A DNA stretch of 64,000 bases from Candidatus Poribacteria bacterium (lineage in GTDB: Bacteria > Poribacteria > WGA-4E > WGA-3G). The notes under the pieces are model-generated. The model did no database searches. It worked only from the letters and a program-made list of their open reading frames with translations, and was not told the origin of the DNA. This document shows, in pieces, positions 13,203 to 41,573 of this stretch. The stretch spans positions 45,674-109,673 of the forward strand of contig CBDBFU010000033.1 in the NCBI GenBank assembly GCA_965205025.1, given 5' to 3'. Each line of letters opens with the position of its first letter. Position 1 is the first letter of the stretch. A program made the translations under genes and the position numbers.

Positions 13203-13560
13203 CGGTGAATGCCCGGTGAATGTCTAAATGGCATTCATACCGTTGATTCCTTGATTCCTGATTCGCGGGGTGAAAGGTGTGTAGAAAACAGATTGCCAAA
13301 AAATAAGCCCCAGAGGGGTGAAAGGTTTGTAGAAAACGTACCAACCAAAGTCCTAAGCCCCAGAGGGGCGAAAGGTGTATCCCTAAATTGTCGCCTATGG
13401 TGTCTTCAATAGACCTGTCTATGAAATGTTTATAGAAGATCATACGTCTCATGAGAACTCCACCTATATGTTGATATAGACATTCCGTCCCTACGGGACT
13501 CAATTATGTGGATATATACCTTTGCTATAGACATTCCGTCCCTACGGGACTCAATACCTA
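13203..13560. repeat. Cluster of element C hairpins plus AGCCCCAGAGGGG and GAGTCCCGTAGGGACGGAATGTCTATA REP units
   Basis: The same units recur at 23860-24450, 27540-27770 and 28640-28770. Confidence 0.8.
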
Positions 13561-22293: not shown

Positions 22294-22507
22294 GGTTTAT
22301 AGACGTTTCACATCTTCTCTTCTGTGTGCGGGATTCCAATCCCAGATTCTTACATTCTGTAGGAGAGGATTCCGATCCCCGATCTTCTCTTATCCGTGAA
22401 ATCCGTGAAATCCGCGTAATCCGTGATTCAGACAATCCCGGATTCCTATCCCTGACTCTTCTGTAGGAGGGAACTCCCATTCCCGATCTTTTCCACCCCT
22501 TGGTAGG

Positions 22508-22612
22508 CGGGAATGCTATATAGCATTCATACCCGGGGAATGACTAAATGTCATTCATACCCGGGGAATGCTAAATAGCATTCATACCGTTGATTCCTTG
22601 ATTCCTTGATTC
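22508..22612. repeat. Triple-nested element C hairpin (CGGGGAATGC-loop-GCATTCATACCGTTGATT)
   Basis: Three hairpin heads are followed by three TTGATT tails. Other copies lie at ~6575, 13203, 23862, 24036, 24250, 27408, 35493 and 39415. Confidence 0.8.
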
Positions 22613-22747
22613 CTCAGTTTGTTGGATGTGGTGTTGATTCATAGGAGTTGCATGTATCGCTGATATGTGGTAGTGGTGGATATAATAAAGCATACCTCTA
22701 CTCAAAGAGTTATGACTTGAGGTATGCAACGTAGATTGAAGATAAAT

Positions 22748-22960
22748 CTATTTTTTTGGATTGTCTGACTGTGGCTTAGACGAATCAGGCATAGGCTTAG
22801 ATGATTCCGGCTGAGGATTGTTTTGTGGTGGTTTAGGTCTATGAACAGGTCTAATCGCAGGGGGAATATTTGGTACTGTCCACGACTGCCGTTCAGACCT
22901 ATTAGGGGGTATGGCTTTCTGGGGTTTGTTGTTCTGGGTTTGCTTTTTTTTCTTTGACAT
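22748..22960 (-). CDS. Small Pro/Lys-rich peptide
   Basis: ATG 22960 has a GGAGG RBS inside the upstream gene end. Sequence MSKKKK...RPVHRPKPPQNNPQP. Confidence 0.5.
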   Translation of the reverse strand: MSKKKKQTQNNKPQKAIPPNRSERQSWTVPNIPPAIRPVHRPKPPQNNPQPESSKPMPDSSKPQSDNPKK

Positions 22961-22964
22961 TGTA

Positions 22965-23447
22965 TTAACCTCCATTCATTTTTATAGCGCCAAATCCTAA
23001 AAATAATAAAAATATAAGTATACCGAATATAAATAAACTTATGGCAGAAATACTTAGGAAATTTCCTATTCTACCTGACGTACTCACATAAAATCGCGCT
23101 TCCTCTACATTATTTAGGTAAAAGTCTTCATTGAATTCGCTTTGTTTCCGCAAATTTTTTCTAACAAATACATAAGCACTCATATTACTAACAATAGATA
23201 AAATAAATGGGGCATAACTGAAGATCAATACCCAATGATTAACACCATTCCAGTTTACATAGGCGGTCATTAATACCAATAAACCTCCGGAAAAATATCT
23301 CATAGTTTTATTAAACTCTACGTCATTGCTTAATAGGCTATCAAATATTTTTCTTTCTTCGGCAAGGTATAAGGCATATATCTCTTTTTGTATTTCCTCT
23401 GTATCTCGTGTTTCTTCTGTATCTTGTGTTTCTTCAGTTTTTAGCAT
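22965..23447 (-). CDS. Membrane protein (3 TM), hypothetical
   Basis: GGGAG RBS. Two TMs, a charged loop and a third TM. Confidence 0.7.
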   Translation of the reverse strand: MLKTEETQDTEETRDTEEIQKEIYALYLAEERKIFDSLLSNDVEFNKTMRYFSGGLLVLMTAYVNWNGVNHWVLIFSYAPFILSIVSNMSAYVFVRKNLRKQSEFNEDFYLNNVEEARFYVSTSGRIGNFLSISAISLFIFGILIFLLFLGFGAIKMNGG

Positions 23448-23937
23448 AGCAGTAACACTCCCGCATTATATTATCATACATCTATTCAATAGTCAATTTC
23501 TTTCATAAAGGGGGTGTGTAAAGTTTTTGTCACCATAGGTGTTAATTTACTCATTAGACTCTTCTGTAGAAGGGAACTCCGATTCCCGATTCTTACATTC
23601 TGTAGGATGTGATTCCGATCCCCGATCTTCTCTTATCCGCGTAATCGCGCAATCCGCGCAATCCGTGAAATCAGTGGTTCAGACAATCCCCGAATTCCGA
23701 TTCCAGTTCCTTCAAGATCCTGTCTCTACCCCATGGTAGGTTCGGTCTCCACCCCATGGTAGGTTCGGTTTCTAACCGAACCGAAGTAACACCATTTTCA
23801 ATTGATAGAATTACATTATGACTTACATGATACAAGGCTTATGATATGCATATTATGAGTCCCGGTGAATGCCTAAATGGCATTCATACCCGGGGAACGC
23901 CAAAAAGGCGTTCATACCGTTGATTCCTTGATTTGGT

Positions 23938-24450
23938 AGGGACGATATGTCTATAGAAAACCTGTTTCTATACTATCTTGAGTCCCATAGGGACGGAATG
24001 TCTATAGCAAAAGTGTATATCCCTGTAATTGAGTCCCGGGGAATGCCCGGTGAATGACTAAATGTCATTCATACCGTTGTTTCTTGATTCCTTGATTTGG
24101 TAGGGACGAAATGATTATAACTAAGGTGAATATCCCTAAAATAGAGTCCCGTAGGGACGGAATGTTTATAGAAAACGTGCTTTTTCTCTATCTTGAGTCC
24201 CGTAGGGACGGAATGTCTATAGAAGTCGTTATCACCAATATCCTAAGCCCCGGGGAATGCTAAATAGCATTCATACCCGGGGAACGCCAAAAAGGCGTTC
24301 ATACCGTTGATTCCTTGATTCCTTGATTTGGTAGGGGCGAAATGTGTGTAGAAAGGTCATTCCTCCCCAAAGGTCAAGCCCCAGCGGGGCGAAAGGTGTG
24401 TAGAAAACGTTGCAGCCTCATCACTAAGCCCCAGCGGGGCGAAAGGTGTA
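23938..24450 (+). repeat. Tandem GAGTCCCGTAGGGACGGAATGTCTATAG and AGCCCCAGCGGGGCGAAAGGTG REP units interrupted by element C
   Basis: About 50-nt periodicity with variable linkers. Confidence 0.8.
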
Positions 24451-24507
24451 TCCCTAAATTAACACCTATGGCTACAATCATTTACGCACCCTTAGCTTCC
24501 CGTAATC

Positions 24508-24536
24508 TTGAATATACTGCAATTAGATGCTATAAT
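24508..24536 (+). promoter_or_regulatory. Sigma70-type promoter (duplicated at 27171-27199)
   Basis: TTGAAT-N17-TATAAT with an extended TG. The copy TTGATT-N17-TATAAT sits in a ~90-bp direct repeat. Confidence 0.6.
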
Positions 24537-24614
24537 GATAATCACAATTTATCAAAAGACTACTTGTAGATATTAACTCACACCCAACAAACACCTGATA
24601 GGAGATGAAAATCC

Positions 24615-26408
24615 ATGAAAATACTCGCTTATGCACTCGGTGCTTACAATATTGTAGGAACTGGATTTTCTATTATTGGTGGTATCAACCACGCCATCAA
24701 ACATTTTTGCAAAACTACAGCAGAAGAACTTTTCAAAAAATCTTTTGATAAGGTAGTTAAGCAACATGCATCTGACTTTGCTGATCTTACTGATCCGAAA
24801 ACCGTTAAAATTGATCCCCATACATTTGATAACGTTATTGCTTCACTCAAAGATGAGGACAAAAACCAATTCGCACAATTATTTGAAAGTGAGAAAATCG
24901 CAAAAATCACAACACTTTTTCGGAAATGTATTATCATCCCCAACCATCAATTGCCTAATATGGATTTAGATCAAAGAATTCGTCCCATTATTGAAAAGGT
25001 GATTATTGATTTTTATTCACAACTTCCATTTAAACAGGAAGCATTCAATCAAAGTATCCTTGAATTTATCCAAAATAACACGACTGATCAAACAGACACA
25101 GATTCTATACTAATGGAATTTAAGAATGAAATTGAACAAGTAGAGAAAGAAGTTAGTCTACGTATAACACAGGATATCCAAGCCTTTAAGGATTACACTG
25201 AAGATATTAATAACGAAATTAAAGGACTTAAGCAAACGACCGATAGGAATAGGTTAGATACATGGGAATCTCTCATAGGTAAGACTGAATTTGAGGATAG
25301 AAGTCGTATTGGAAATTTTGATGCAGACCAACTATTAGAAATCGCAAAACAGGCAAATTGGAAGATTTCTGAACCTTACAACAGTTATGTGCTTGCTTTA
25401 GGTGAAGAGCGAATGAATTTACAATCAGCATTAGACGTGTGCGTTGACTTTCTCTACACACTTTGGGATGAACCAATTTCTTTCAGACAAAAAGAATTCT
25501 TGACATTGGGTTTATTAACCGGATTTACTAAAGGCCGAGATGCTGACAAAGTATTAGACAAACTTATATATCTAATTCAAAATAAACATACACATTTTTT
25601 ACCTGTTGAAAACAGTATTCTCAGACAAATCCGTAATTTTCAACAGATCTATCCACTTGAAGAAAACTTTATGTTTTTAGAAGAACATGATATTCGTCTT
25701 AAAGGAACGCGTGTAGGAATTGAAACTATACTAACCGAATATATAGATAATAGTAGACCACCAGAAAAAATCGCTTATCATTACTATTCACCTACACTTG
25801 AACAGATTTACGCTACAATCCTATATTATCTTCAAAATCAAGAAAAAGTTACTACATATATGAAGGATTATCTTACATATTGCAAAACAGCACGTGAGGA
25901 ATACGAGAAGAATCTACCCCCGGTTGTTGTTCGCTTGCGTAAACTCATTGCAGAAAAGGAAGCAAATTCTGATATACCCGAGCCAACAATCGAAAAAACA
26001 ACACAGCAAGTACAAACCCAATCCCCAACCAATAATGAACGGGGGATAAAGATGCGTCGGTTTCTCATAGATGAAAATATTTCTCCCGAGTATGGTATGC
26101 AATTGCTTTACCATGAACCATTACTAAGGGTCTTGGCGATTGGCGATGAAGGTGCTCCTCCGAAAAGTACACCAGACCCAGAAATCTTAGTCTGGTGTGA
26201 ACAGAACCAATTTAACTTGATAACAAACAATCGGGAAAGTATGCCGCAACATCTCGCTGACCATCTGGCAGCAGGACACCATGTACCCGGCATTTTCACA
26301 ATTAATCTCACAGTACCTATGGGAAGAATCATCAATGAATTACTTCTCATCGCTGGTGCCTCTGACGAAGAAGAATATATGGACAAAATTACTTACATCC
26401 CACTTTAA
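24615..26408 (+). CDS. Fusion: unknown helical N-terminus + DUF433 antitoxin-like domain + DUF5615 PIN-like domain
   Basis: IRLKGTRVGIETIL...TLEQIYATILYY is DUF433-like. MRRFLIDENIS...TPDPEILVWC...LITNNR...HVPGIF is DUF5615/VapC45-like. All lie in one frame. Confidence 0.75.
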   Translation: MKILAYALGAYNIVGTGFSIIGGINHAIKHFCKTTAEELFKKSFDKVVKQHASDFADLTDPKTVKIDPHTFDNVIASLKDEDKNQFAQLFESEKIAKITTLFRKCIIIPNHQLPNMDLDQRIRPIIEKVIIDFYSQLPFKQEAFNQSILEFIQNNTTDQTDTDSILMEFKNEIEQVEKEVSLRITQDIQAFKDYTEDINNEIKGLKQTTDRNRLDTWESLIGKTEFEDRSRIGNFDADQLLEIAKQANWKISEPYNSYVLALGEERMNLQSALDVCVDFLYTLWDEPISFRQKEFLTLGLLTGFTKGRDADKVLDKLIYLIQNKHTHFLPVENSILRQIRNFQQIYPLEENFMFLEEHDIRLKGTRVGIETILTEYIDNSRPPEKIAYHYYSPTLEQIYATILYYLQNQEKVTTYMKDYLTYCKTAREEYEKNLPPVVVRLRKLIAEKEANSDIPEPTIEKTTQQVQTQSPTNNERGIKMRRFLIDENISPEYGMQLLYHEPLLRVLAIGDEGAPPKSTPDPEILVWCEQNQFNLITNNRESMPQHLADHLAAGHHVPGIFTINLTVPMGRIINELLLIAGASDEEEYMDKITYIPL

Positions 26409-26438
26409 CTACTGGAAACTAAATACTTCTCTTATCGT

Positions 26439-26467
26439 TTGACAATCCATATAGTGTGTGTTAATCT
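26439..26467 (+). promoter_or_regulatory. Possible sigma70 promoter
   Basis: TTGACA-N17-TAATCT with TG upstream of the -10. Confidence 0.4.
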
Positions 26468-26482
26468 ATTGATATTATCAGA

Positions 26483-26716
26483 ATGATGGCAGAAGGTATT
26501 GACTTCATCATGTTATTGTCAGATTGGTTACTTGAGAGACGAGAAAAACGTATTCAGGCAGCGAGAGAAGAAGGATATGCAGAAGGATATGCAGAAGGAT
26601 ATGCCGAAAGTTATGCTGTTGCGAAAGCCGAAAACAGCGATACAGTTGAGAAATCACCAGATCCTCCATCAAAGTCTTCAAATTCTTCATCAATACCCAC
26701 AAAAAATCCTAAATAA
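26483..26716 (+). CDS. Small protein with EGYAEG repeats (Rpn/Yae1 C-terminal-like)
   Basis: REEGYAEGYAEGYAES is encoded by a 12-bp tandem repeat (AGAAGGATATGC). The start may be 26510. Confidence 0.55.
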   Translation: MMAEGIDFIMLLSDWLLERREKRIQAAREEGYAEGYAEGYAESYAVAKAENSDTVEKSPDPPSKSSNSSSIPTKNPK

Positions 26717-26906
26717 CCCAAGTTGCTACTAACGGATTTTGATCGTTTCAACACAGCTTTTCAGACGCTAACCTCACCCCAGAGGGGTGATATCTCTATA
26801 GAAAAAGATATATCAACATCCTGTCCCGAACTTCTCTTATCCGTGAAATCCGTGAAATCCGCGTAATCCGTGATTCAGAAAAACCCCTCTTTGTACCACA
26901 AACTTT

Positions 26907-27020
26907 ATGAAGATTAAGAAAATATTTCGGTAATTCTAATTTTCCCAAACCCGGTAGGTGCGGTTTCCTAACCGCACTGTATCTTTTTCAAAATTACAGA
27001 ATTAAAAAATTAATCTTCAT
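26907..27020. mobile_element. MITE family B in REP loop
   Basis: ATGAAGATTAAG...TTAATCTTCAT in CACAAACTTT|TTAGTTTGTG. Confidence 0.75.
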
Positions 27021-27240
27021 TTAGTTTGTGATCTTACTCCTTACAATACGCGGATTCGGCATTGATTTGGTGATTCAGACAACTCAAAACAAACCCAAAA
27101 ATATACTAATCCTACTAAATTGACGCCTACGATGACAAATTATCTACGCACCATTTAGCTTCCCGAAATCTTGATTATACAGCAAATATAGGCTATAATG
27201 ATAATCACAATTTATCAAAGATTATTTGTAGAAATTATCT

Positions 27241-27357
27241 TATACCATTACTGATAATTAAAGTCTCTTTAATGTAGCATAAACTTCCAGTTTGTGCGGT
27301 ATTTCAAAACGTACACAACAACTGTTTATGGAAAAAACGTTTACAGAAATGGTATTA
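27241..27357. mobile_element. MITE family A
   Basis: TATACCATT...AAATGGTATTA with an internal REP. A direct-repeat copy lies at ~28372-28485. Confidence 0.7.
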
Positions 27358-27661
27358 TATTCTGTAGGAGGAGATTCCGATCCCCGATCTTTCCCACCAC
27401 TTGGTAGGCGGGGAATGCTATATAGCATTCATACCGTTGATTCCTCGGTTTCTAACCGAACCGAAGTGTCAATTTCAGCATTAGACTATATGGGATGGAA
27501 CTCCGATCCCCGATCCTCACTATTGTAAAATATATGAAGTCCCATAGGGACGGAATGTTTATAGACTATGTGTATAACCAATTTCCAAAACTGTGACGAA
27601 TTCACCAGGAATCCGTCTGGGAAACACACCTACCGTGGTTGTGTAATCAGACTTTATTGAA

Positions 27662-27883
27662 TAGGACTTACGCATTTCCTGTTTGTCTGTAGCCCCAGCG
27701 GGGCGAAAGGTGTGTAGAAAACGTATTGACCCTAAACACTAAGCCCCAGCGGGGCGAAAGGTGTATATTTATATGGATTTTAGTATCACTCTTTCTACTG
27801 ACAACGGGATTGTAGTGTAATATATGTGAGTAACAATTTTAAAACTAATCTGCCTGATAACTCATTATTTTGCGTAAGTCTTG
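27662..27883. mobile_element. MITE family E, 222 bp
   Basis: TIR TAGGACTTACGCA / TGCGTAAGTCTTG with a 5-bp direct repeat TTGAA. It carries two AGCCCCAGCGGGGCG REP units. Confidence 0.75.
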
Positions 27884-27928
27884 TTGAATTATAACTTCAT
27901 TTTCTTTCATCATACTCACGTTAATTAA

Positions 27929-28318
27929 ATGGTAATTGATATGTCAATATGGTTTTCTGACAATGAAAGAAAGCGATTGAAGGATAAGATTGAATATCAA
28001 AAACGTGAAGATGAAGCAATATTTCCATTAGCATATCTTGTAGTAAATGACTTTGTTGATGAACATGGTACTGCTAATCTTATGGGAATGACAGATGATC
28101 AATTGTTGGAGGAAGTTAAAGAATTCGGAGCAAACAAAGCACTTGATATAGCAGCACAACAAGCTGGAAAAGATATTTTAGAATTCGTCACAAGTATTCA
28201 GCATAATAAAAGAGACAACCAGATAGCATGTAGGATCTCTGATATGTTAGTTCAGGATGATTTTGCTGCCCAAGTCGTCAAATTAGTTAAAACACATATC
28301 TACGCAGATATACAATAA
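27929..28318 (+). CDS. Hypothetical helical protein
   Basis: 129-aa ORF with protein-like composition, lying between directly repeated blocks. Confidence 0.6.
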   Translation: MVIDMSIWFSDNERKRLKDKIEYQKREDEAIFPLAYLVVNDFVDEHGTANLMGMTDDQLLEEVKEFGANKALDIAAQQAGKDILEFVTSIQHNKRDNQIACRISDMLVQDDFAAQVVKLVKTHIYADIQ

Positions 28319-28639
28319 TTATCATCGAAATTTGTACTCTGTGAATTATAGTAAACACTTATACTGTGGAATAATCAAATTCTGATAATTAATGTCTCTT
28401 TAATGTAGCATAAACTTCCAGTTTGTGCGTATTTCAAGACATGCAAAAAACTGTTCATGGGAAGACATTTATAGAAATGGTATTATATTCTGTAGGAGGA
28501 GATTCCGATCCCCGATCTTTACTATTGTAAAAATATATGAAGTCCCGGGGAATTCCTAATGAAGATTAAGTAATACCATTTTCAATTGATAGATTTACAT
28601 TATGACTTACCTGATACAAGGATCACCATATACATTTCT

Positions 28640-28772
28640 GAGTCCCATAGGGACGGAATGTCTATAGCAAAAAGGGGGTTGCTTCACATTCTTGAGTCCC
28701 GTAGGGACGGAATGTCTATAGAAAAGGTGTATATGTCAATAAATGAGTCCCGTAGGGACGGAATGTCTATAA
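28640..28772 (+). repeat. Three tandem GAGTCCC(G/A)TAGGGACGGAATGTCTATA units
   Basis: Units start at 28640, 28694 and 28745, with 23-26 nt variable linkers. Confidence 0.85.
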
Positions 28773-28831
28773 TACAAAATCCAAAATCCGTGAAAACAAC
28801 AAGAATAATTAGTTAACTGGCACAAGTCATC

Positions 28832-31800
28832 ATGATAGATAATATTGACTGGAATAAACTAAAACCGTATAAAGATTCCAAAAATCATAGTTTTGAAGAA
28901 TTATGCTATCAAATAGCTAAAGGACGCTATGAAGGAAAAGGAAAATTCACTTCCATAGACGATAGAGGTGGTGGAGACGGAGTCGAATTCTATCTTACAT
29001 TTCCAAACGGAGAACAGTGGGGATGGCAAGCAAAGTTCTATCATTCAAAAGATAGACTAAGTCAAAGTAATCGGAAAAAATCTATTACAGATTCTTTTCA
29101 AAGAGCATGTGAGATACATCCACGTCTAAAAAAATGGGTATTGTGTACAGCAATTAATTTTACACCCAAAGAACAACTTTGGTTTGATTCTACGCTTCAT
29201 GAAATAAAACCAGATATTGAAATTGAGCACTGGGGTGATAGTGATTTTTTAAACTGGTTGAGTGAACCGCATTTTCATGGAATTTACCAATTCTTCTTTG
29301 GAAAACGTCAACTAAATTTGGATTGGTTTGAAACACAGTTTGAAAAGCAGATGGCTGGCGTAAGTGAAAAATTCGATGCTTCCTTGCATACCGAAACTAA
29401 AGTAGATGATGAAATTCACGCGCTTTTGGGGGATAATGCATTTGTACACCAAATCGACAAATGGATTGAAGAACTTGATAGTAAGCTCCCAGATTTAAAG
29501 GAGGAAATTGATGAAATCAGACATCCGATTCCAAATGTAATTGAGTGGGACGAAGAAGAAAAGTCAAAAGTCATTGAGGCTGCTGAATTACTTCAAAAGG
29601 CATTAGAGAATATAGTCGAAAGTTTTGAAAAAGCCAGAAAAATCTTGTGTAAACAGGATTTTGCCACTGCACAGTCCATTGATTGGATAGCTATCTACGG
29701 TCAACTCAACAATGTTTTTGATAATTATAGACAAGTTTCAAGACAATCTGGCATATCACAGATAAAGTATACTGTTGAAGAAGAAAATAAAGAACAATTT
29801 TTACGCAAGGCAAGTCAGATAATTCATGGACCGGATCATTTGGTTGCCAATTTATTAGATAAATTTTTCCCATCTGTAATCTGGAAACTTGGGCTTATCA
29901 ATGAGTCGAATCTAAATATCCTCGGAGATGCTGGAATTGGCAAAACCCATATCGCCTGTAATACTTGTTATGACCGATTAAAAAACGGATTACCCGCGCT
30001 GTTTGTTCGTGGAAGTCAATTTAAGACCGATCAACCAATTGAAACACAGTTACGGACAATTCTTGACATTCCACCAGCCTATAGTTGGAACGATTTTTTA
30101 CAGGCACTATCAGCAGCTGCAGAAGCCTACCATACACGTATTCCATTGATAATAGATGGACTTAATGAATCTGTACATAACGGTACTTTTTCAAATGTAT
30201 GGGAATTAGGACTAAAAGGACTTGCTAAGGAGATTGCAGACAAAAAGAACCTTGTATTAATTACAACATGCCGCAGGAGTTACGAAGAGACTATTTGGAA
30301 AGAGGTCAATCCAAAAGAAGACATCATTCCAGGGAAGGTAATTTGGAAAGATAAGGATTCACTAAATTTAGTTTATGCTTATGGTTTTGATCGATACCAG
30401 GAGGTGGAGCCTGCAGTTGAAAAGTACTTCAACGCCTACAAGATTAAAGCTGATCTTACGGGGGCACCATTAGCACAGTTTGAACATCCTATCTACCTCA
30501 AGATTTTCTGTGAAACAAAAAATCGTGAACGCAAGACTGAGGTACAAGTTTATGTAGGCGAGCAAACGCTTTTTGAAGTTTTTGATGAATATTTGGAGCA
30601 ATGTAACAAAGAAATATGTGATCGTCTGAATCGTCATCCAAAAACACTTATAGTTCAACCCGCTTTGAACAAGATGGCGGCCCACTTGTGGCAAAATAGA
30701 AGCCGTGAGATCCCTTTTGACAAATTAGTACATATTGTAGACGGTCAATCCCGCCAACATCTGGACTGGCAATCATCAAAGACGTGTGCTATGGAAAGTG
30801 AAGGGTTGTTAGTCTATCGAGATTGGACAGGCGTTGGTGAAGTGATGCATTTTACCTATGACCTATTCGGTGGGTATCTGATTGCAAAATATTTGGTTGA
30901 ACAAGCTGCTGATGATCCACAAGGTTTCTTATGCCGTGAGGAAATAGAGGCAGTACTGTTTGGCAAAGACCGTCAAATATTACATCCTATGCACGAAGAT
31001 ATAGTTAGATGTCTTGCTGCATTTCTTCCATCCGCAACAGGCCATTTTCTGCACGAACTTTCAGATCATAACAAGGCAATTAGTTTATCAATTCATTCTT
31101 TGTTTGAAATTTCCCCAAAAGATATAAACGAAGAATGTATTGACCTAATCACCCACCTTTTTGGGTTTCCTGAAAACCGTGAATCGTTCTTTAAATTAGC
31201 AGAAACTACCATTGGACATCCCAATCATCCCTTCAACGCCCAATTCTGGACAGAACGACTTACGGCATTATCTATGTCAGAACGAGACCTAAGTTGGACT
31301 GAATATGTGAGCTATAACCGTTATGATTTTGAAGATATACTCAAGCATTTTGAGGAAAATTGTCGAGGCGAACAAGAACTATCTGATTTTAGTAGGGAAC
31401 GTCTACATCTATTGGCAGAACACATTATGTGGATACTTACATCCACTGTGCGTCCATTACGGGACATAGCAACACGCGCACTTTACTGGTATGGACGACG
31501 TTTCCCAAATGAGTTTATTGATTTACTCATGAAATCTTTAACAATCAATGATCCTTATGTATCTGAACGGATGTTGGCTGCAACTTACGGAATTACTATG
31601 GCTCGTCAAAACGACTTCGATGATACCAGTTTCGTAGATGAGATGTTACCTAAATATGGAAAACAATTGTATGAAAATATGTTCAAACCTAACGCTCTAC
31701 ATGCAACAACACACATATTAGCACGTGATTATGCAAAAAGAACGATTGAAATTGCTTTGATTCATTATCCAGACCTACTAAGGGACGACGAAAAGGTACG

Positions 31801-33027
31801 TATAGAAGCACCTTATACAGATGGTGGAATTCGTGAATGGGAAGAGAATGAAGTCGATGATAACATGCACAAAGGTCCATTACGAATGGATTTCCGTAAT
31901 TATACCATTGGTTCTTTGGTTAAAGGTAGAGGAAACTATAATTTTGAACATCCTGAATATAAACGTGTATTGCGTAATATCTCATGGAGGGTACAGGAGT
32001 TAGGATACTCTAAGGAAGCATTTGAGAATATTGATGGAAGAATTGGATCACAGAATCAGCACTTTGGGAGATCTGCAAACGGTGTAAGACAGATAGATAT
32101 GGAAAAAAATATTCATGGATAGCATATTTTGAATATGCTGGTTATTTACAAGATCAAGATCTTTTACCGGAATATTATAATGACCATCGAATTGGTGAGA
32201 CAGATATTGATCCCAGTTTTCCTTCCGAAGTTAAAATGTATGAATTGGTGAAACAAGATTATTTAGGAACTGATATTGAAGATCCTGAAGAATGGGTTAA
32301 TGGAATCCCACCTACAGATTTGCAAGATTATATTACTGTAAATCAGATTTTGGAAGAAGAAGGTCCGTGGATTTTGTTACAAGGTACTTTTAGGCAGGAA
32401 AACGCAGATAACACAAGAAATATGTATGCATTTTTTCAAGGTGTTCTTGCAAAAACTGATGAAGTTGAGAGTATCATTGACTTTATAGAAGAGCATGAGC
32501 AGATTGATAGTTGGCGTATTTCTCCACCAGAAGATTATTACACATTTGCTGGTGAGATACCATGGTGTGATACATATCCTTCAAACAGTTGGGTAGACCT
32601 GTCTATAAGTTGGGATGATGATGAAACTTATGATGCACTAATTCCTAAAATATTGCCTCCTGTTAGGGTAAATAATTGGGAAGATTATCATAGTACTATT
32701 GTTCCAGGACGGAATGTTGCTACACCATCTCGTCAGATTGCTGAATATCTCGACTTATGTGGTGTTCCTCAAAGTTATGATCTTTTTGAAAAAGAGAGTG
32801 GTAAACGCGCGTCACATTCCATTGAATTTGGACAAGGATGGGGAAATGCCCAACGATTTACATATATTCGAAAAGATCTATTAGATCGATATTTAAAGGA
32901 AATGAATGAGGAGCTAATTTGGATTATTTATGGAGATAAACGGGAATTAACACCAAATGCCGATGGACCTTATAAATTATTCCATAATTTTATAGTATAT
33001 CAGTGTAAGCATAAGGATGATGAATAA
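28832..33027 (+). CDS. Avs2-like antiviral STAND NTPase with N-terminal PD-(D/E)xK (Mrr-like) nuclease; 1-nt frameshift near 32084
   Basis: FEELCYQI...GGGDGVEFY...WGWQAKFY (nuclease), Walker A GDAGIGKT and Walker B LIIDGLNE. Avs2-like C-terminal motifs are LRDIATRAL, NDPYVSERMLAA and HILARDYA. Adding one G restores KTDRYGKKYSWIAY and joins ORF 32236 (~1398 aa). Confidence 0.75.
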
Positions 33028-34288
33028 CATGTATAATGCGAGAGGTTGGAAGAATGTCCAATTAGAATCAATAGCCGATATCCGAGCAGGTTCAGGTTTT
33101 CCTATTAAATACCAAGGTAATACACATGGAAAATATCCATTTTACAAAGTTTCAGATATGAATCTAACTGGTAATGAAACTATAATGTCATTATCCAATA
33201 ATTGGGTTGATGAAAATACAGTTATAACGCTTAAAGCAAAATTATTTCCCAAAAATACAGTTATATTTCCTAAGGTCGGTGCTGCAGTTCACACGAATAA
33301 AAAGCGAATGTTATCAATTGAAGGATTAGTGGATAACAATGTGATGGGAGTAATAATTCGAAACTATAAAGTATGTATTCCTTATTACTTACTTTATTGG
33401 TTTGAATTTATTGATTTAGGCGATCTTTCTAATCCAGGAACTCTACCAGCAATTACAGCTAGAACGGTGAAAAATACTACAATCCCCCTCCCCCCACTCC
33501 CAGAACAACGCGCCATAGCTCACATCCTACAGACAATCCAACAAGCAAAATTCACCAGACAACGCGAAATAGAATTAGAACGCGAACGAAAAGCAGCCTT
33601 GATGAATCACCTATTCACACACGGAACAAAAGGTGAACCCCGAAAACAGACAGAAATCGGAGAGATACCTGAGAGTTGGGAGGTTGTTAAATTGGGCGAT
33701 AAAGCAGAATTGAGGAATGGAATTAACTTTAAGAAAGAGCAAAAGGGTCAAGGAATATTAACTGTAGATGTTTTAAATATGTACAACGACAGTTTATATT
33801 TTGATAAAGAGAATTTATACAGAGTAGAACGAAAAATGAAGGATAGTGATTTCCTTAAACCGAAAGATATATTATTTGTCCGTTCATCTTTAAAACAAGA
33901 AGGGGTTGCATGGCCAGCATTGTTTGGACAACATGATGAACCTATAACTTTTTGTGGTTTCTTAATACGTGCAAGATTAACATCAGAAGAAATTGACCCA
34001 GAATTTTTAACACACTATTTCCGCACAAATTATGCTCGTAAGTTTCTGGTGTCAAAATCAGCAAGGTTAGCAATTACTAACGTCAGTCAGGCTATTTTAA
34101 ACAGTTGTCCTATTGTTATACCAAGTTATTCAGAACAGCGACAGATTGCCAATATAATCAATTCTGTTGACAATAAGATATTTGCCCTTGAAAAAGAAGT
34201 AGAACATATAGACGAACTATTCCACACCATGCTTGAAGAATTGATGACTGGAAAACGATCCGCAATTCCACTCATAGACCATTTATAA
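33017..34288 (+). CDS. hsdS: Type I restriction-modification specificity subunit
   Basis: Two TRDs, PLPPLPEQRAIA, the central KQTEIGEIPESW and C-terminal EQRQIA...ELMTGK. Confidence 0.93.
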   Translation: MMNNMYNARGWKNVQLESIADIRAGSGFPIKYQGNTHGKYPFYKVSDMNLTGNETIMSLSNNWVDENTVITLKAKLFPKNTVIFPKVGAAVHTNKKRMLSIEGLVDNNVMGVIIRNYKVCIPYYLLYWFEFIDLGDLSNPGTLPAITARTVKNTTIPLPPLPEQRAIAHILQTIQQAKFTRQREIELERERKAALMNHLFTHGTKGEPRKQTEIGEIPESWEVVKLGDKAELRNGINFKKEQKGQGILTVDVLNMYNDSLYFDKENLYRVERKMKDSDFLKPKDILFVRSSLKQEGVAWPALFGQHDEPITFCGFLIRARLTSEEIDPEFLTHYFRTNYARKFLVSKSARLAITNVSQAILNSCPIVIPSYSEQRQIANIINSVDNKIFALEKEVEHIDELFHTMLEELMTGKRSAIPLIDHL

Positions 34289-34826: not shown

Positions 34827-35577
34827 CAGCATTATCAGTTTTTGAAAATCGTCCGCTAAACATTCATACGCATAGTCTAAAAAAGCAAGTACAGAGGATT
34901 ATCAAATCGAATTACCCCACATATTTTTTTAGTTTTTCAAATTTTGAAATTTTGCACCGATTCATCAAATCCTTTGTTATCCCAATCCCCAACAGGGTTT
35001 TCGGCACATCAAAACGTAATTTCTCAAAAAGCGACTAAAAAAACTTGAAAAACTAAAAAAACTTGAAAAACTAAAAATTAGACAGACGACAAACAATCCA
35101 AATCAATGGAATAGAGGAAAAGTAAAAGACACAAAAATCAACCCCACTCTTAATTGGTGCAAATTCTCGTTACCGTAAAAAAGTGGCTGTAAACCCAGTG
35201 TAGGACTAACGGGATAAAGGTTTTACCAATGTCACACCATGTGACAAAAAGTGTAACTTTTATACACATTATAGGAATAATTATATAACGAACAAGTAAA
35301 ATAAAAAGGTGTAAATTTACAAAATAATCACCCTTGATCCATTATAAAAACAATTTTTGGAAGATACATGCAATAGAAATTGTAGCACAAACTGTTAGTT
35401 TGTGCATTGTTAGACGCAAACTAAATGAAGATTAAGTAAATATTTCGGTAACTTTATATCTGTTCAAGACTTGGTAGGTGCGGTTTTCAACCACGGGGAA
35501 TGCTAAATAGCATTCATACCCGGGGAATGACTAAATGTCATTCATACCGTTGATTCCTTGATTCGAATTTCTCAGCA

Positions 35578-36213: not shown

Positions 36214-36501
36214 ACTCCCAACTTTACTGGAGTTTTCAGAAATCGTCTGAAGATAAGAAGGAACAAATTGCAAAATTTAGAATTTTTCAATTTTCAAAAT
36301 ATGGCACATTTAAACACCGATAAACCCTTACAGACACTGACTTTAGACCATATACGAATGCTGAATTTTAAAGTTACACCATGTAACGAAAAGTGTAACT
36401 TTTCTCCTGTTTTGGGCACATATTAGACATTCTTTGGAGAATACCAAACACTGACAATTTTAGATTAGACAGATCTATTCATTTGCACGAAATTAGACTA
36501 A

Positions 36502-39375
36502 ATGATGAGTGAAAACCAAACAGTACAAGAACCTTTAATCCAATACGCTGAACAAATAGAGTGGACACGTTTATCCCGTTCTGAAGCAATGGAATTAAGA
36601 GGGGATACCTCTATCATATATTTCCCGGATGTGTTAAAAACACAATTGTTAAAGCTCAATCCAGATATACTGGATGAATCTAACTTTGAAGAAGTAAGAA
36701 GAAATTTGAGAAACCTAAAACCGACACTTGAGGGAAACCTAACAGCACTTGAATGGATACGCGGAGAAAAATCTGTCTTCGTCCCTAAAGAGAACAGAGA
36801 ACGAAACGTCACACTCATCGATTTTGAATCACGCAAAAACAATACATTCTATGTAACTGAAGAATGGGAACAGAAAGGCGTTGTCCACACAAATCGTGCA
36901 GATGTTGTCTTCCTCATCAACGGCATACCAATTGTTGTTGTAGAAACAAAATCCGCTAACAAGACTGACGGATTGGCAGAAGGGATTGACCAAATACGTA
37001 GATACCATAATGAAACACGAGAACTCTTTACAACCGCACAACTCTTCGGTGTTACACAACTCTTAGATCTTTACTACGGCGTAACATGGAATATAAACCG
37101 AAAGAATCTGTTTAATTGGAAAGCAGATGATCCGTCAAACTTTGAACAGAAGATAAAGACATTTTTTGACCCTGAACGAATACTAAAGGTATTATACAGA
37201 TCTATCATCTTCCAAAAACGAGATGATAAAACAACCAAGATTGTATTACGCCAACATCAAAATCGTGCAGAAGAAAAGGTTATCGAAAGAGTAAAAAATC
37301 CAAATAAAACACGCGGACTCATCTGGCATACACAAGGCAGCGGAAAAACGCTTACAATGATCTCTATTGCATCACGGTTGCTACGCGGTGCAATCCACGA
37401 TGAAAAACCGACTGTCCTTATGGTGGTAGACAGGAATGAACTGGAGAGTCAACTTTTTCATAACATAACTGGATACGGTATCACAAACCTAAAAGTCGCA
37501 CAAAGTAAGGACGATCTTGAGCAGATTCTCTCGTCAGATTACCGCGGATTAATTGTATCCATGATACATAAGTTTGATAGCAGACCCGCGAACCTAAATA
37601 CAAGTACAAACGTAGTTGTTCTTATAGATGAAGCACATCGCACAACAGGTGGTGATTTTGGGAATTACCTGATGGCTGCACTACCAAATGCAACATATAT
37701 CGGATTCACTGGTACACCCATAGACAATATATCCCACGGTGAAGGAACATTTAAGGTATTCGGTATTGACGATGAACAGGGCTATCTTGATAAATACGAT
37801 ATAGCAGAATCAATTGAGGATGGTACAACTGTTCCCCTGAATTATGCTCTCGCACCGTCAAATCTTCAGGTTGATACAGAGACTTTAGAACGTGAATTCA
37901 TGAACCTTGCTCAAGCTGAAGGTGTGAGTGATATTGATGAACTAAATTCCATACTCGATCGTGCTGTTAATCTGAAAGAGATTATGAAAGCACCCAATAG
38001 AGTTGATGCTATTGCAAAATATGTGGCTAAACATTTTCTGGAAAACATTGAACCGATGGGATTTAAAGCATTCCTTGTAGGTGTAGATCGTGAAGCATGT
38101 GCGTTATACAAAAATGCATTGGACAAATATCTCCCACCTGAATATTCTGAGGTGGTATATTCAAAAAACAACAGTGATTCTGAGTTCATGAAATCCTTCC
38201 ATCTAACTGATGAACAGGAAAAGGACATACGTAAGAAGTTCATTGATAAGAACTCACAACCGAAAATCTTGATTGTTACACAGAAATTGCTAACGGGTTT
38301 CGATGCACCAATTCTCTATTGTCTGTATCTGGATAAACCTATGCGAGATCATGTCCTGTTACAGACGATTGCGCGCGTCAATCGTCCCTACGAAGATAAT
38401 GATGGTCTTGTAAAATCTGCCGGTTTTATATTTGATTTTGTCGGTATTCTTGAGAAATTAGGGAAAGCACTGGCATTCGATTCTGACACAGTGGAAGGGG
38501 TTATACAGAATTTAGATGTTCTCAAGGATAAATTTGCAGAAATGATGCATGAAACCGCACAAGAATACCTGCTTTATGCTGAAGGAACAGATGACAAAGC
38601 AAAAGAGGAAGCAATTGAACATTTTACGCTAAAGGATGACCGTGAGAGATTCTTTGAATTCTTCAAACAATTGCAAAATCTATATAACATATTATCACCA
38701 AACCCATTCCTATACGAATATATTGAGGATTTCCGTGCATTAACCAACTTATACGGTTTACTACGCAACGCATTTGCTGAGAATGTCTATGTGGATAAAG
38801 AATTAACCAATAAGACACGAGAACTCCTGCAGACACATACTGAAGGGAGCATGTTTGATTTACCGAATGAAATAACGGAACTCAACGAAGATACAATTAG
38901 AGAATTAAGACAGAGTGATAAATCGGATACAGTCAAGGTGTTAAATCTCATAAAGGTTGTAAGAAAAACAGTAGATGCTGATGCTCAATCTCAACCCTAT
39001 TTAATACCCATAGGAGACCGTGCCGAAGCAACTATAGAATCCTATGAAAATAGACAAACAGAAACACAAGATGTTTTGGAATTATTCTTAAGATATGCTG
39101 AAGAAATCTCACAAGCACATAGACAACAAAACGAACTCGGATTAGATAAAAATTCCTATGCTATCTATAAAGTTCTCAGTACTGAGATTGAGGATGTTAC
39201 AAACGAACAAGCACAGGCGGTCAATCAAGTATTTGAGAATTTCCCTGATTTCGAATGGAGTGCTGAAGAAAAAAGAAAGTTACGGTTGACCTTATATTCG
39301 ACTTTAGGGCCATCATTAAATACAGATAGTAGAATGGAAATAACTGATAAATTGATAAATTTGAAAAGGGTTTGA
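36502..39375 (+). CDS. hsdR: Type I restriction endonuclease subunit
   Basis: RADVVFLINGIPIVVVETK, WHTQGSGKT, DEAHR, GFTGTP, LLTGFDAP and LQTIARVNR. Confidence 0.95.
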   Translation: MMSENQTVQEPLIQYAEQIEWTRLSRSEAMELRGDTSIIYFPDVLKTQLLKLNPDILDESNFEEVRRNLRNLKPTLEGNLTALEWIRGEKSVFVPKENRERNVTLIDFESRKNNTFYVTEEWEQKGVVHTNRADVVFLINGIPIVVVETKSANKTDGLAEGIDQIRRYHNETRELFTTAQLFGVTQLLDLYYGVTWNINRKNLFNWKADDPSNFEQKIKTFFDPERILKVLYRSIIFQKRDDKTTKIVLRQHQNRAEEKVIERVKNPNKTRGLIWHTQGSGKTLTMISIASRLLRGAIHDEKPTVLMVVDRNELESQLFHNITGYGITNLKVAQSKDDLEQILSSDYRGLIVSMIHKFDSRPANLNTSTNVVVLIDEAHRTTGGDFGNYLMAALPNATYIGFTGTPIDNISHGEGTFKVFGIDDEQGYLDKYDIAESIEDGTTVPLNYALAPSNLQVDTETLEREFMNLAQAEGVSDIDELNSILDRAVNLKEIMKAPNRVDAIAKYVAKHFLENIEPMGFKAFLVGVDREACALYKNALDKYLPPEYSEVVYSKNNSDSEFMKSFHLTDEQEKDIRKKFIDKNSQPKILIVTQKLLTGFDAPILYCLYLDKPMRDHVLLQTIARVNRPYEDNDGLVKSAGFIFDFVGILEKLGKALAFDSDTVEGVIQNLDVLKDKFAEMMHETAQEYLLYAEGTDDKAKEEAIEHFTLKDDRERFFEFFKQLQNLYNILSPNPFLYEYIEDFRALTNLYGLLRNAFAENVYVDKELTNKTRELLQTHTEGSMFDLPNEITELNEDTIRELRQSDKSDTVKVLNLIKVVRKTVDADAQSQPYLIPIGDRAEATIESYENRQTETQDVLELFLRYAEEISQAHRQQNELGLDKNSYAIYKVLSTEIEDVTNEQAQAVNQVFENFPDFEWSAEEKRKLRLTLYSTLGPSLNTDSRMEITDKLINLKRV

Positions 39376-39672
39376 CATCACTTTCTTCCTCATGGTAGGT
39401 TCGGTTTCTAACTGCGGGGAATGCCCGGGGAATGCCTAAATGGGCATTCATACCGTTGATTTAAGGCATTCATACCGTTGATTTGAAGCCTCCCCGTTGA
39501 TTTGGTGGTTCAGACAACTCAAAACATACTAACAAATATACTGATCTCACCAAATTGACGCCTATGAGGCGGGATCTCCACGTCCATTGCAACAACATAT
39601 AGAACATAGTATGAACAAAGAACGCTCATAATATATGATTTATGAGAAACCATCTAAAAAGAAAATATCTTA

Positions 39673-41280
39673 ATGAAAAGAACACTACATATTATCACTA
39701 TAGCACTAATTATGACTTTAACCCTTAACACAACCCACATTTTTGCACAAGACTCTCCACAATGGCACCTACCAGAAGGAGCCAAAGCACGACTTGGTAA
39801 AGGATATGTATCTGAAGTTGATTACTCTCCAGATGGTAACCTGCTTGCTGTAACAAGTGGCATCGGTATCTGGATATACGATGCACAGACAGGTGAAGAA
39901 CTTAAACTACTCATAGGGCAAACAGGGTTTTTCTCAAGTGCCTTTTTCAGTCCGGATGGTAATACGTTGGCAAACGTGAGTGGTGATAAGGTACGTCTAT
40001 GGGAAGTAAGTAGTGGTCGTCTCCTACAAACTATCACCGGAAAATTTGGAATTGCAAGTAGTCTCTCCTTCAGACCGGATGGTAGGATACTCACATGGGG
40101 GAGTGAGATTAACAACGTTTATTTATGGGAAGTTAACAGTGGTCATCGCCTACACACACTTGATGGGCAACTGGGAAGAGTTTTTAGTTCCTCTTTCAGT
40201 CCGGATGGGAATATCCTTGCATTGGGAAGTCATGATAAGACGGTTCGTTTATGGGAAGTGAGTACTGGTCGTCTTCTACACACTCTCTCAGCACATACGG
40301 CTTCGGTCTTTTCTGTCTCCTTCAGTCCGGTTTGTGGGATGTGAGCACTGGACGTATTCACCGAACGCTCAAAGGACATACTTCGTATGTCAATAGTGTC
40401 TCCTTCAGTCCGGATGGTAGTATACTTGTATCTGGGAGTATGGATAACATTATCCGTTTGTGGGATGTGAGTAAAGGTAGTCTTCACAGCACATTCACAG
40501 GACATACAGATATAATCAAAAGTGTTTCCTTCAGTCCAGATGGTAGTATACTTGCATTGGGAGGAAGTAACGATGACACGATACGTTTGTTAGAAGTGAG
40601 TAGTGGTCGTCTCCAGCACACGCTCAGAGGGCATACGGAAATAATCATCGAGAGTGTATCCTTTAGTCCAGATGGAAGAAAGCTGGCATCTGGGAGTTTG
40701 GATAAGACGGTTCGTTTGTGGGATGTGAATAGTAGTAAACTCCTACACACACTGACAGGACATACGGATAGAGTCAATAGTGTCTCCTTCAGTCCAGATG
40801 GTAATACATTGGCATCAGGGAGTGATGATGGCTCAGTTCGTTTATGGGATGTGGATAGTGGAGGCACACTGCAGACGCTCACAGGGCATACGAATTGGGT
40901 CAATAGCGTCTCCTTCAGTCCAGATGGTAATACATTGGCATCAGGGAGTGATGATGACTCGGTTCGTTTGTGGGATGTGGAGTGGTCATCAGGTTGGCAT
41001 ATTCACAGAACATACTGATAGGGTCAATAGTGTCTCCTTCAGTCCGGATGGTAGAAAGTTGGCATCGGGGAGTTGGGATAATACGGTTCGATTGTGGGAT
41101 GTGGGAAGTGGTGATCTCCTGCAGACACTCACAGGACATACGAATTTAGTCAATAGTGTCTCCTTCAGTCCAGATGGTAATACGTTGGCATCAGGGAGTA
41201 GTGATGGTTCGATACTTTTATGGGAACTACCATCAACCTCTACAAATTCAACAGGTTCAAACGGTGAAAATTCACAGTAA
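39673..41280 (+). pseudogene. Secreted WD40-repeat protein, disrupted
   Basis: Signal peptide, QWHLPEGAKARLGKG and ~11 GHT...[20 protein letters not shown] repeats at 126-nt period. There is a 43-nt deletion at ~40330 and a 2-nt deletion at ~40980. Confidence 0.85.
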
Positions 41281-41573
41281 TGGTCTTGGAAATTATAGGA
41301 AGTAATATATAAATTAACGATATAGTAATTCACGGAGTACAGATACACTGAATTCTGTAACCCCTTATCACTACAGTCTTCTTTAAAATACCTCCGTGAA
41401 GGTTTCCGTGAATCGTGAAGCTGAAATTTGCTCCAAAAACTACAGAAAATTAACAGGAATTTGTTCGTTCTACTATGGATCATTTAGTATTAGAACACCA
41501 GTTTGAATTTAAAAAAGGTCAGTTCTATATACGGTATTTTGTCCCGAATTCATCTTTCTGTACCACAAACTTT

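Follow-up and report, generated by a model that had tools for sequence, protein, structure and literature searches.

A short hairpin repeat, here named E, has inserted into copies of itself in the genome of a Candidatus Poribacteria bacterium, repeatedly as a whole unit between the ATACC and the GTTGATT of the copy that received it, and always in one orientation. E was found in a 64,000-nt stretch of this genome, which is called the window below. The genome is a metagenome-assembled genome of 5.66 Mb in 33 contigs, 95% complete with 4.3% contamination. The repeat unit is CGG(G/T)GAATGCC-loop-GGCATTC-ATACC-G-TTGATTY(C), 36-37 nt long, and two parts of it are named separately. The “head” is the hairpin module, CGG(G)GAATGNN-loop-NNCATTCATACC, and the “tail” is TTGATTCC. 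E is probably a mobile DNA hairpin of Poribacteria that is neither coding nor autonomous and is placed into hairpin loops, above all at its own site just 3' of its hairpin. Small hairpin repeats fill bacterial intergenic DNA and for most of them the mode of movement is obscure. E leaves an unusually clean record, which consists of dozens of independent insertions at one defined site of its own, with a constant junction and a strict orientation.

Self-nesting of the E element

The array at 22508-22613 of the window (all window features given here are on the plus strand) consists of three tandem heads (22508-22588), a single G and three tails. The first head, CGGGAATGCT-ATAT-AGCATTCATACC (22508-22533), has the stem GAATGCT/AGCATTC and belongs to the resident unit. 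The second head, CGGGGAATGAC-TAAAT-GTCATTCATACC (22534-22561; stem GAATGAC/GTCATTC), and the third, CGGGGAATGCT-AAAT-AGCATTCATACC (22562-22588; stem GAATGCT/AGCATTC), belong to nested newcomers. The G at 22589 is part of the innermost, intact unit and is followed by the three TTGATTCC tails, innermost first (22590-22613). The GGTAGG at 22502-22507 is the left part of the host repeat that holds the resident unit, which is of the type named repetitive extragenic palindrome (REP) C (compare 27403-27408). The 3:3 composition given in the initial annotation of the window is read directly from these positions, and its motifs are far more frequent than in shuffled sequence. TTGATTCC occurs 17 times in the window with 4.4 expected, a count equalled in 0 of 100 shuffles, and GAATG-N8-CATTCATACC has five matches with 0.23 expected, five being reached in 0 of 100 shuffles. 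Since heads 1 and 3 have a common stem, the array is predicted to fold into a single long composite hairpin, and no pairing of tails with the 5' ends of heads (GGAAT/ATTCC) appeared in the predicted folds.

Clusters of heads and tails were parsed with purpose-written regular expressions, half heads being included in the head counts, and 244 E clusters were identified in the window's genome. Most of the 191 clusters with one head had one tail (156); the others had none (8), two (17), three (6), four (2) or five (2). Most of the 49 clusters with two heads had two tails (32), the rest having none (2), one (8), three (5), four (1) or five (1). Three heads were present in three clusters, two with three tails and one with five, and the single cluster with five heads had four tails. 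Among multi-head clusters, 43 of 53 had at least two tails, compared with 27 of the 191 with a single head (Fisher p 6e-20). Head and tail counts were equal in 77.9% of clusters, versus a mean of 56.7% and a maximum of 65.2% in 10,000 permutations. E copies are related, so these p-values overstate independence. Because many copies are not independent, clusters were also collapsed by shared flanks or composition, and the association between heads and tails persisted both when identical 15-nt flanks were merged (193 clusters, p 1e-15) and when clusters alike in host class, head variants and tails were merged (146 clusters, p 4e-10). Head and tail counts were likewise correlated in other genomes, where 80 loci gave 79 clusters, with one tail in 64 of 67 single-head clusters and at least two tails in 9 of 12 multi-head clusters. 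In the three multi-head exceptions there are runs of TGATTC, a shorter tail that the parser does not count, and in two of the three these tails number three, the same as the heads. In addition, all 56 head-head junctions in the window's genome are direct and none is inverted. The tail-then-head joint, which tandem duplication or circle integration would produce, has 0 copies genome-wide. A unit lies within the loop side of another unit at ten loci, all direct (an eleventh regular-expression match was a chance match).

The sequence variants of heads and tails distinguish resident units from newcomers. Single units have a typical head in each host, namely GAATGCC-TAAAT in REP A, GAATGCC-ATAA in REP B, GAATGCC-CTAA in host D and GAATGCT-AAAT at a site (C3) inside a MITE (miniature inverted-repeat transposable element). 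The first head of double clusters is the host-typical variant in 6 of 7 cases in REP A, 3 of 5 in REP B, 3 of 4 in host D and 3 of 3 at C3, and the second head is of another subfamily. Tail classes were compared by the two letters that follow TTGATT. Inner tails (n=103) end nearly always in CC (92; TC 8, other 3). Outermost tails (n=70) have the same range of endings (TG 22, CG 17, CC 11, CA 10, CT 5, TA 3, TC 1, TT 1) as single units (n=164; CG 53, TG 44, CA 38, CT 13, CC 9, TA 4, TT 2, TC 1). Thus, the first head and the last tail form one old unit, and a complete newcomer lies between them. Nested clusters have 42 distinct compositions, in which the GAATGAC and GAACGCC subfamilies are inner, and so recent, nine times each and never outer, and the GAATGCC subfamily is single or outer in 99 of 112 occurrences. 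The Russian-doll self-insertion that had been proposed from the window was supported by these variants together with the counts and with the filled and empty sites described below.

The 7-bp stem of the head is maintained by compensatory changes. With only the outer motifs as anchors, all seven positions pair in 223 of 268 heads and six of seven pair in 24. Across 60 distinct heads, drawn from the window plus other genomes, the helix is 97.9% paired and five of its seven pairs have changed on both sides (UA to GC, GC to CG, CG to AU or UA, CG to UA, and GC to AU). None of 500 shuffles reached any of the five measures used, and slid controls were 26-44% paired. The covariation first noticed at about nine loci therefore goes beyond that of shuffled heads. 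Neither of the two outcomes that the initial annotation had named as refuting its reading, uncorrelated head and tail counts and covariation that is not significant, was observed. All four stem variants named at the time (GAATGCT, GAATGAC, GAACGCC and GAATGCC) are present genome-wide. The outer CGG/CCG pairs are uninformative because they are nearly invariant. Stem compensation is no proof of selection on RNA, because one arm of a palindrome could template the other in DNA.

Junctions at the self-site and at host hairpins

A resident site reads ..CATACC-G-TTGATT.. and a double reads ..CATACC-[CGGGG..ATACC-G-TTGATT-CC]-TTGATT.. in the window's genome. One base, the resident G, is out and 37 are in, and nothing is duplicated. 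The resident G must be lost because no split of a double yields the resident plus one uninterrupted insert. The self-junction has two forms, TTGATTCCTTGATT with 81 copies and TTGATTTCTTGATT with 11 copies genome-wide, and the forms that would retain the G (TTGATTCGTTGATT, TTGATTTGTTGATT and TTGATTCCGTTGATT) have 0 copies genome-wide. A clean HUH-type insertion, a 2-nt crossover core of the IS110 or serine type, and a duplication of CC were each rejected, as each predicts a retained G. An excision footprint, in which a head would be joined to a tail without the G, was seen in one doubtful case among eight ATACCTTGATT sites.

Insertion into other hairpin repeats had also been proposed, and empty and filled forms were found for five host sites by comparison of paralogous copies. 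In the following forms, E stands for CGG..GTTGATT and the net gain is given in brackets. REP A changes from GAGTCC-CG-TAGGG to GAGTCC-E-TGG-TAGGG (E + 1 nt). Site C1 changes from GGTAGG-TG-CGG to GGTAGG-E-TGG-CGG in four cases (E + 1 nt) and to GGTAGG-E-TG-CGG in two (E). The site at 27409 of the window changes from GGTAGG-T-TCGG to GGTAGG-E-CC-TCGG (E + 1 nt). Three hosts gain E - 1 nt, namely REP B (AAGCCC-CAGC-GGGG to AAGCCC-E-CGC-GGGG), C2 (TTTCC-TAAC-CGAACC to TTTCC-E-CAC-CGAACC) and D (AAGGGG-GATT-TAGGGGG to AAGGGG-E-CTT-TAGGGGG). Host insertions thus involve the loss of one to three loop bases and no duplication, and the claim that E makes no target duplication was upheld at the self-junction and at host sites alike. 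The left flanks of E vary (..TCC, ..CCC, ..ACC, ..AGG, ..GGG and ..CCA). The self-junction is the reliable one because it represents many independent events, while each host junction may trace to a single amplified founder.

The genes that flank the array at 22508 are not adjacent to each other in 39 relatives. In one syntenic relative, G042, the intergenic DNA is unalignable and differs by kilobase-scale blocks, and no clean empty site was found. For example, window positions 22298-33482 span about 11.2 kb here and about 1.8 kb at the corresponding locus of that relative (L136, G042:C185). Window positions 39378-41300 hold about 2 kb between conserved blocks (about 1.9 kb extra) in comparison with about 150 nt at the same locus. 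E-rich spacers coincide with variable segments, because both extra blocks start at E-containing repeat clusters. Some E copies have chimeric flanks, such as REP-A on the left and REP-B on the right (L001, 1060-1125), or REP-C on the left and REP-B on the right. Such flanks would be expected if recombination between two E copies had removed the DNA between them.

Known systems, candidate enzymes and alternative explanations

E was compared with REP and REPIN repeats and their REP-associated tyrosine transposases (RAYTs), for which the reference set was Di Nocera et al. 2013 (PMC3733652), Messing et al. 2012 (PMC3479197) and Bertels and Rainey 2011 (PMC3116915). Both are short (20-40 nt), extragenic, high-copy hairpins, with 244 clusters and 0 of 171 loci in open reading frames (ORFs) in the case of E, and both combine vertical persistence with lineage-specific bursts. 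Some REP families are described as sitting in other palindromes (PMC3733652), and the window's genome has a RAYT with its own REPs, which host E. E differs in that it lacks GTAG and CGTC, either of which is the conserved tag at the foot of a REP hairpin (PMC3479197, PMC3733652), and has instead CGG(G/T) on its top strand and GTAT before the stem on its bottom strand. In addition, E flanks no RAYT, its abundance is unrelated to the presence of that RAYT type, it occurs in co-oriented nested arrays and not in inverted doublets or alternating bacterial interspersed mosaic elements (BIMEs), and it has a conserved 12-14-nt 3' tail. The lodging of hairpin repeats in other palindromes is already described for REPs (PMC3733652). 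The word “nested” is absent from that paper. Added here are the quantitative proof of self-nesting, the distinction between resident and newcomer, the base-replacing junction and the failed membership in the REP-RAYT system. Searches of the literature on Poribacteria found one unrelated paper for repetitive extragenic palindromic repeats and, for transposases, repeats and MITEs, none on Poribacteria among the matches listed (12 of 963).

The small dispersed repeats (SDRs) of Nostoc reportedly include copies inside their own copies and compensatory stem changes, with no known enzyme, in the account of Elhai and colleagues from 2008. The head^n-G-tail^n form with one base lost and the genome-wide count test are not known from that account. 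E and the SDRs are both non-coding hairpin repeats of tens of nucleotides with site-specific insertion, but they occur in different phyla, their sequences are probably unrelated and E is longer (36-37 nt). The SDR families (SDR1-8) are reportedly confined to Nostocaceae. Membership of E in them was rejected because E occurs in Poribacteria, and the likeness is of kind only. The SDRs are about 20 nt long and possibly mobile, and SDR5 inserts precisely inside the HIP1 octamer (PMC5861425, PMC4390886, PMC2884548).

The IS200/IS605 family (IS608, ISDra2) resembles E in the lack of target duplication, in strict orientation, and in having about 10 nt between a hairpin and the end of the element. E also forms long same-orientation runs along contigs, as would be expected for strand-specific insertion, but with no link to local GC skew in this draft genome. 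IS200/IS605 elements insert 3' of a fixed 4-5-nt target, without duplication or loss, whereas E has no conserved 4-5-nt target on its 5' side and one to three target bases are lost. Moreover, E has one hairpin in place of two ends, and no tnpA or tnpB lies in or beside it; E halves bracket only inserted IS630-type elements. The initial annotation had linked E to this family, and this link was not supported. The only Y1 genes of the genome are RAYT-like, are flanked by other repeats and do not track E number by their presence, and the loss of a target base misfits the clean insertion of IS608. The “TCAA end” cited for the link is weak, since TCAA lies at the 3' end of IS608 and the bottom-strand TCAA of E lies 2-3 nt from its 5' end. 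DDE-type MITEs of the IS630 type (about 135 nt) in the same genome are likewise non-autonomous, high-copy and hairpin-forming, and land at hairpin tips that include the E loop. E differs from them in its lack of target duplication, in its single orientation, and in its ends, which are unlike those of the one insertion sequence (IS) compared, the genome's IS630-type IS.

The sole HUH enzymes found in the window's genome are encoded by three near-identical genes of RAYT-like type (Y1_Tnp, 157 aa; Pfam E 1e-28). These genes lie outside the window on contig C27 (loci L001-L003, L112 and L134), with a direct array of GAGTCCCGTAGGGACGGAATGTCTATAG upstream and two inverted copies downstream. Genus-wide, the stem of the RAYT-flanking repeat changes with the RAYT lineage (GTCCC/GGGAC, GCTCC/GGAGC, GCCCC/GGGGC and GCACC/GGTGC). 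The tail of these repeats, ..ATGT.TATAG, is constant while the stem changes. RAYT genes are flanked by repeats of GAGTCCCGTAGGGAC type or by related ones. E cores were found at 0 of 21 RAYT loci of other genomes, and the RAYT loci of the window's genome have only an E about 400 nt upstream plus a decayed E tail. Because the RAYT is flanked by lineage-matched repeats and not by E, REP A and REP B are taken as the repeats of the RAYT and E as their lodger. Of 40 genomes, 22 carry this RAYT type. Across the 40, E number is unrelated to its presence (Spearman -0.06, p 0.71), and the median is 66 E copies with this RAYT type versus 116 without. Some Y1 enzyme may nevertheless serve E, because Y1_Tnp of any type was present in all five genomes checked, which carry 1 to about 300 E copies. 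Profile searches for IS110, RVT_1 (reverse transcriptase) and TnpB gave no match in the window's genome, which is 95% complete. A RAYT, IS110 or TnpB gene flanked by E, which had been suggested as worth seeking, was thus not found.

A complete E has repeatedly entered, always in one orientation, between the ATACC and the GTTGATT of a resident E and replaced the G, and repeated self-insertion of this kind gives head^n-G-tail^n arrays such as the one at 22508-22613. In the proposed mechanism, insertion would take place into single-stranded DNA folded as hairpins, which would explain the loop targets, the strict orientation and the orientation runs along contigs. A sequence-specific enzyme supplied in trans would recognise the hairpin and the 12-14-nt 3' tail. 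Copying would be replicative, since no clear excision footprints were seen. It is unlikely, on present evidence, that the reaction itself is an undescribed single-strand insertion, in which a hairpin, folded and bearing a short 3' tail, is recognised and integrated orientation-specifically at hairpin loops, one to three target nucleotides are swapped out so that the site is neither duplicated nor preserved, and the enzyme is a protein of Poribacteria that has so far escaped recognition as a transposase. To our knowledge, such an insertion matches no junction rule of HUH, DDE, serine, tyrosine or IS110 enzymes. If this reading is true, E would be among the smallest elements (36-37 nt) with documented repeated self-insertion. 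A new enzyme would make hairpin-guided, nucleotide-replacing insertion of mechanistic interest, and a RAYT in this role would widen the known activities of RAYTs. In either case, biochemical tests can start from a defined substrate (E), a target (ATACC-G-TTGATT) and an expected product.

Several observations weigh against E as a mobile hairpin of this kind. The replacement of one base by two, which had been described from the clearest sites, holds for self-insertion here and in three host contexts, and fails elsewhere. REP A, C1 and the self-site gain the unit plus 1 nt, whereas REP B, C2 and D gain the unit minus 1 nt, and self-insertions in two other genomes also have a net gain of the unit minus 1 nt (two bases lost and one gained in each of these four settings). 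No orthologous or population-level filled and empty pair was found in the 39 relatives, in syntenic G042 or in the contigs of the public read runs, so the mobility of E rests on paralogous comparisons. No enzyme is tied to E, as the RAYT is neither flanked by E at the 21 loci nor tracks E number in the 40 genomes, and E orientation is unrelated to local GC skew (Fisher p 0.42; draft genome). Finally, of 80 clusters with at least two heads or tails, 34 have equal counts, 35 an excess of tails and 11 an excess of heads, and one array consists of five identical heads and four tails. The unequal counts indicate that slippage or partial loss or deletion acts on top of nesting. They are also what favours the idea that heads and tails are two adjacent tandem repeats, each slipping independently, with the 3:3 array a coincidence. 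This idea is extremely improbable, as head and tail counts are correlated in this and other genomes, adjacent heads are usually of different subfamilies with the resident outermost, and inner and outer tails differ systematically. Independent slippage is contradicted as the main cause of the arrays and remains a secondary process. It is also very improbable that E is kept chiefly for a role of its structure in RNA or DNA, for instance as terminator, protein-binding site or mRNA 3' stabiliser, with its multiplicity due to selection and not to mobility. The stem covariation, the exclusion of all 171 loci from ORFs of at least 150 aa and a sense bias of 74:34 between co-directional genes are compatible with such a role, but copy number varies from 1 to 484 among close relatives that carry E, the arrays are nested, divergent spacers are favoured over convergent ones, no T-run follows the hairpin, and an Rfam search of the window matched no family.

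Two further explanations concern how E moves. E may be an ordinary REP served by a RAYT, a Y1 HUH tyrosine transposase, with single strands cut and rejoined in or beside other REP hairpins. The three RAYT-like genes, as the only HUH enzymes found, provide a candidate, and a decayed E tail lies just upstream of all three. On its bottom strand E reads CGGTATG, hairpin, CCCCG, and so is built like the genome's GGTAGG-plus-hairpin repeat, and E lodges beside the GTAG in loops of the REPs that belong to the RAYT. REPs within small palindromes are also described in other phyla (PMC3733652). This explanation is nevertheless doubtful. Cleavage by the E. coli RAYT occurs at C|T and depends on GTAG at the foot of the hairpin, each base of GTAG having been individually changed and tested and the change to ACGA abolishing cleavage (PMC3479197), whereas E has GTAT as its nearest equivalent and junctions at C|C and at C|T or C|G, in place of C|T on both sides. 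None of the 21 RAYT loci of other genomes carries E and each has its own co-varying REP, neighbouring E units (within 300 nt) are in the same orientation 61 times and in opposite orientation 4 times, unlike inverted REPIN doublets, and three genomes (G017, G048 and G049) each have more than 200 E copies without this RAYT type. Alternatively, no dedicated enzyme would be needed if, during replication of hairpin-rich DNA, a nascent strand at a hairpin took another E copy as its template and then returned, and so pasted E into loops and into itself. The lack of target duplication with loss of one to three loop bases would fit such switching, as would chimeric flanks (for example, a REP-A left arm and a REP-B right arm around E) and the lack of a reverse transcriptase, IS110 or TnpB match. 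Most left flanks end in CC, as at most source copies, so that microhomology is possible. Template switching is still quite unlikely, because the ends of the unit are identical in 42 distinct nested compositions, the process would have to act on just one family of sequences, within two genera, and return through the 9-nt homology CCGTTGATT would give two heads with one tail, a form seen in only 8 of 49 two-head clusters.

Distribution, genomic context and other loci

A 17-mer of E, sought in one genome per species, matched at 80 loci, of which 75 were in Candidatus or uncultured Poribacteria and two in “uncultured bacterium,” both true E units. The other three (Spirochaetota, Porticoccaceae and Roseivirgaceae) are bare 17-mers without the hairpin and were rejected. 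In the window's own genus, E is present in 24 of 24 genomes by exact 17-mer and in 39 of 39 by a 19-mer with one mismatch allowed. With the same 19-mer criterion, E is present in 58 of 65 genomes of a second genus of the family and in 0 of 7 genomes of four further genera. E was found in 0 of 16 genomes of three other families of the order. Abundance is patchy among related genomes, with 484 and 335 copies in some and 2 and 4 in others, and a reversed control pattern had 0 matches in every genome of the copy-number survey.

E is strictly intergenic, with 0 of 171 loci in crude ORFs of at least 150 aa, and divergent spacers contain it more often than convergent ones (36 versus 20). Four pairs of inverted E copies bracket genes genome-wide, and no gene recurs among them. 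Long elements with an E half at each boundary were considered as a parent of E and rejected, since they result from the insertion of an IS630-type IS or MITE into the E loop. The IS (locus L137, G000:C7:209784-211091) is 1258 nt long, has a 395-aa ORF that matches DDE_3 and HTH domains, and lands in the E loop, as do its MITEs of 105-170 nt. IS and MITEs have a common terminal repeat, ATGAAGATTAA, which is present in the window near 35425-35450. Terminal repeats of this type abut E arms in 79 of 590 cases, and most abut other hairpins. Six full-length copies occupy the loops of six different E units. No TA duplication is evident where the IS and its MITEs sit at the tips of hairpins.

Much of the copy number of the GAATGCT-AAAT variant is hitch-hiking, because this variant sits inside the IS630-type MITE. 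A large share of all E copies, probably most of them, was multiplied passively within amplified RAYT-REPs and this MITE. The description of E as a minimal selfish hairpin in the initial annotation therefore has to be qualified, as a large share of copies travelled passively within larger repeats. Layers of hairpin-seeking elements, namely E, RAYT-REPs and IS630-type MITEs, build upon each other in these sponge-symbiont genomes.

Other E loci of the window agree with their earlier descriptions. Two heads and two tails lie at 23863-23935 in the loop of a RAYT-type REP, GAGTCC|..|GGTAGGGACG (also read GAGTCC|..|GTAGGGACG), and at 35494-35565 at CTAACCA|..|CGAATTT, a site within an IS630-type MITE. 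A single 1:1 unit lies at 27409-27444, GGTAGG|unit+CC|TCGGTTTCTAACCGAACC (GGTAGG|..|TCGGTTTC), and the empty form of its site, GGTAGGTTCGGTTTC.., occurs commonly across the genome. A complete unit (39426-39461) sits in the loop of another unit at 39415-39486. Extra tails are present at 24251-24330, where two heads have three tails, and at 24037-24099, where a left arm only is followed by a unit and three tails in a REP-A loop. A left arm only is also present at 13203-13258, with a complete unit and two tails, which represents a loop-side insertion in which the right arm of the resident is missing. A Logan contig, which may derive from the source sample, spans 36376-40420 without a difference. 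The four public read runs consist of contigs that break at the repeats and so carry no information on polymorphism.

The array at 22508-22613 lies between a 576-aa ORF that ends at 22293 and opposite-strand ORFs from 22748. Just upstream of the array, positions 22331-22493 contain three copies of GGATTCC.ATCCC.GATCTTC and a 35-nt repeat pair, TTCTGTAGGAG..CCGATCTT. A 9-nt tandem repeat, ATCCGTGAA, is present three times at 22392-22426.

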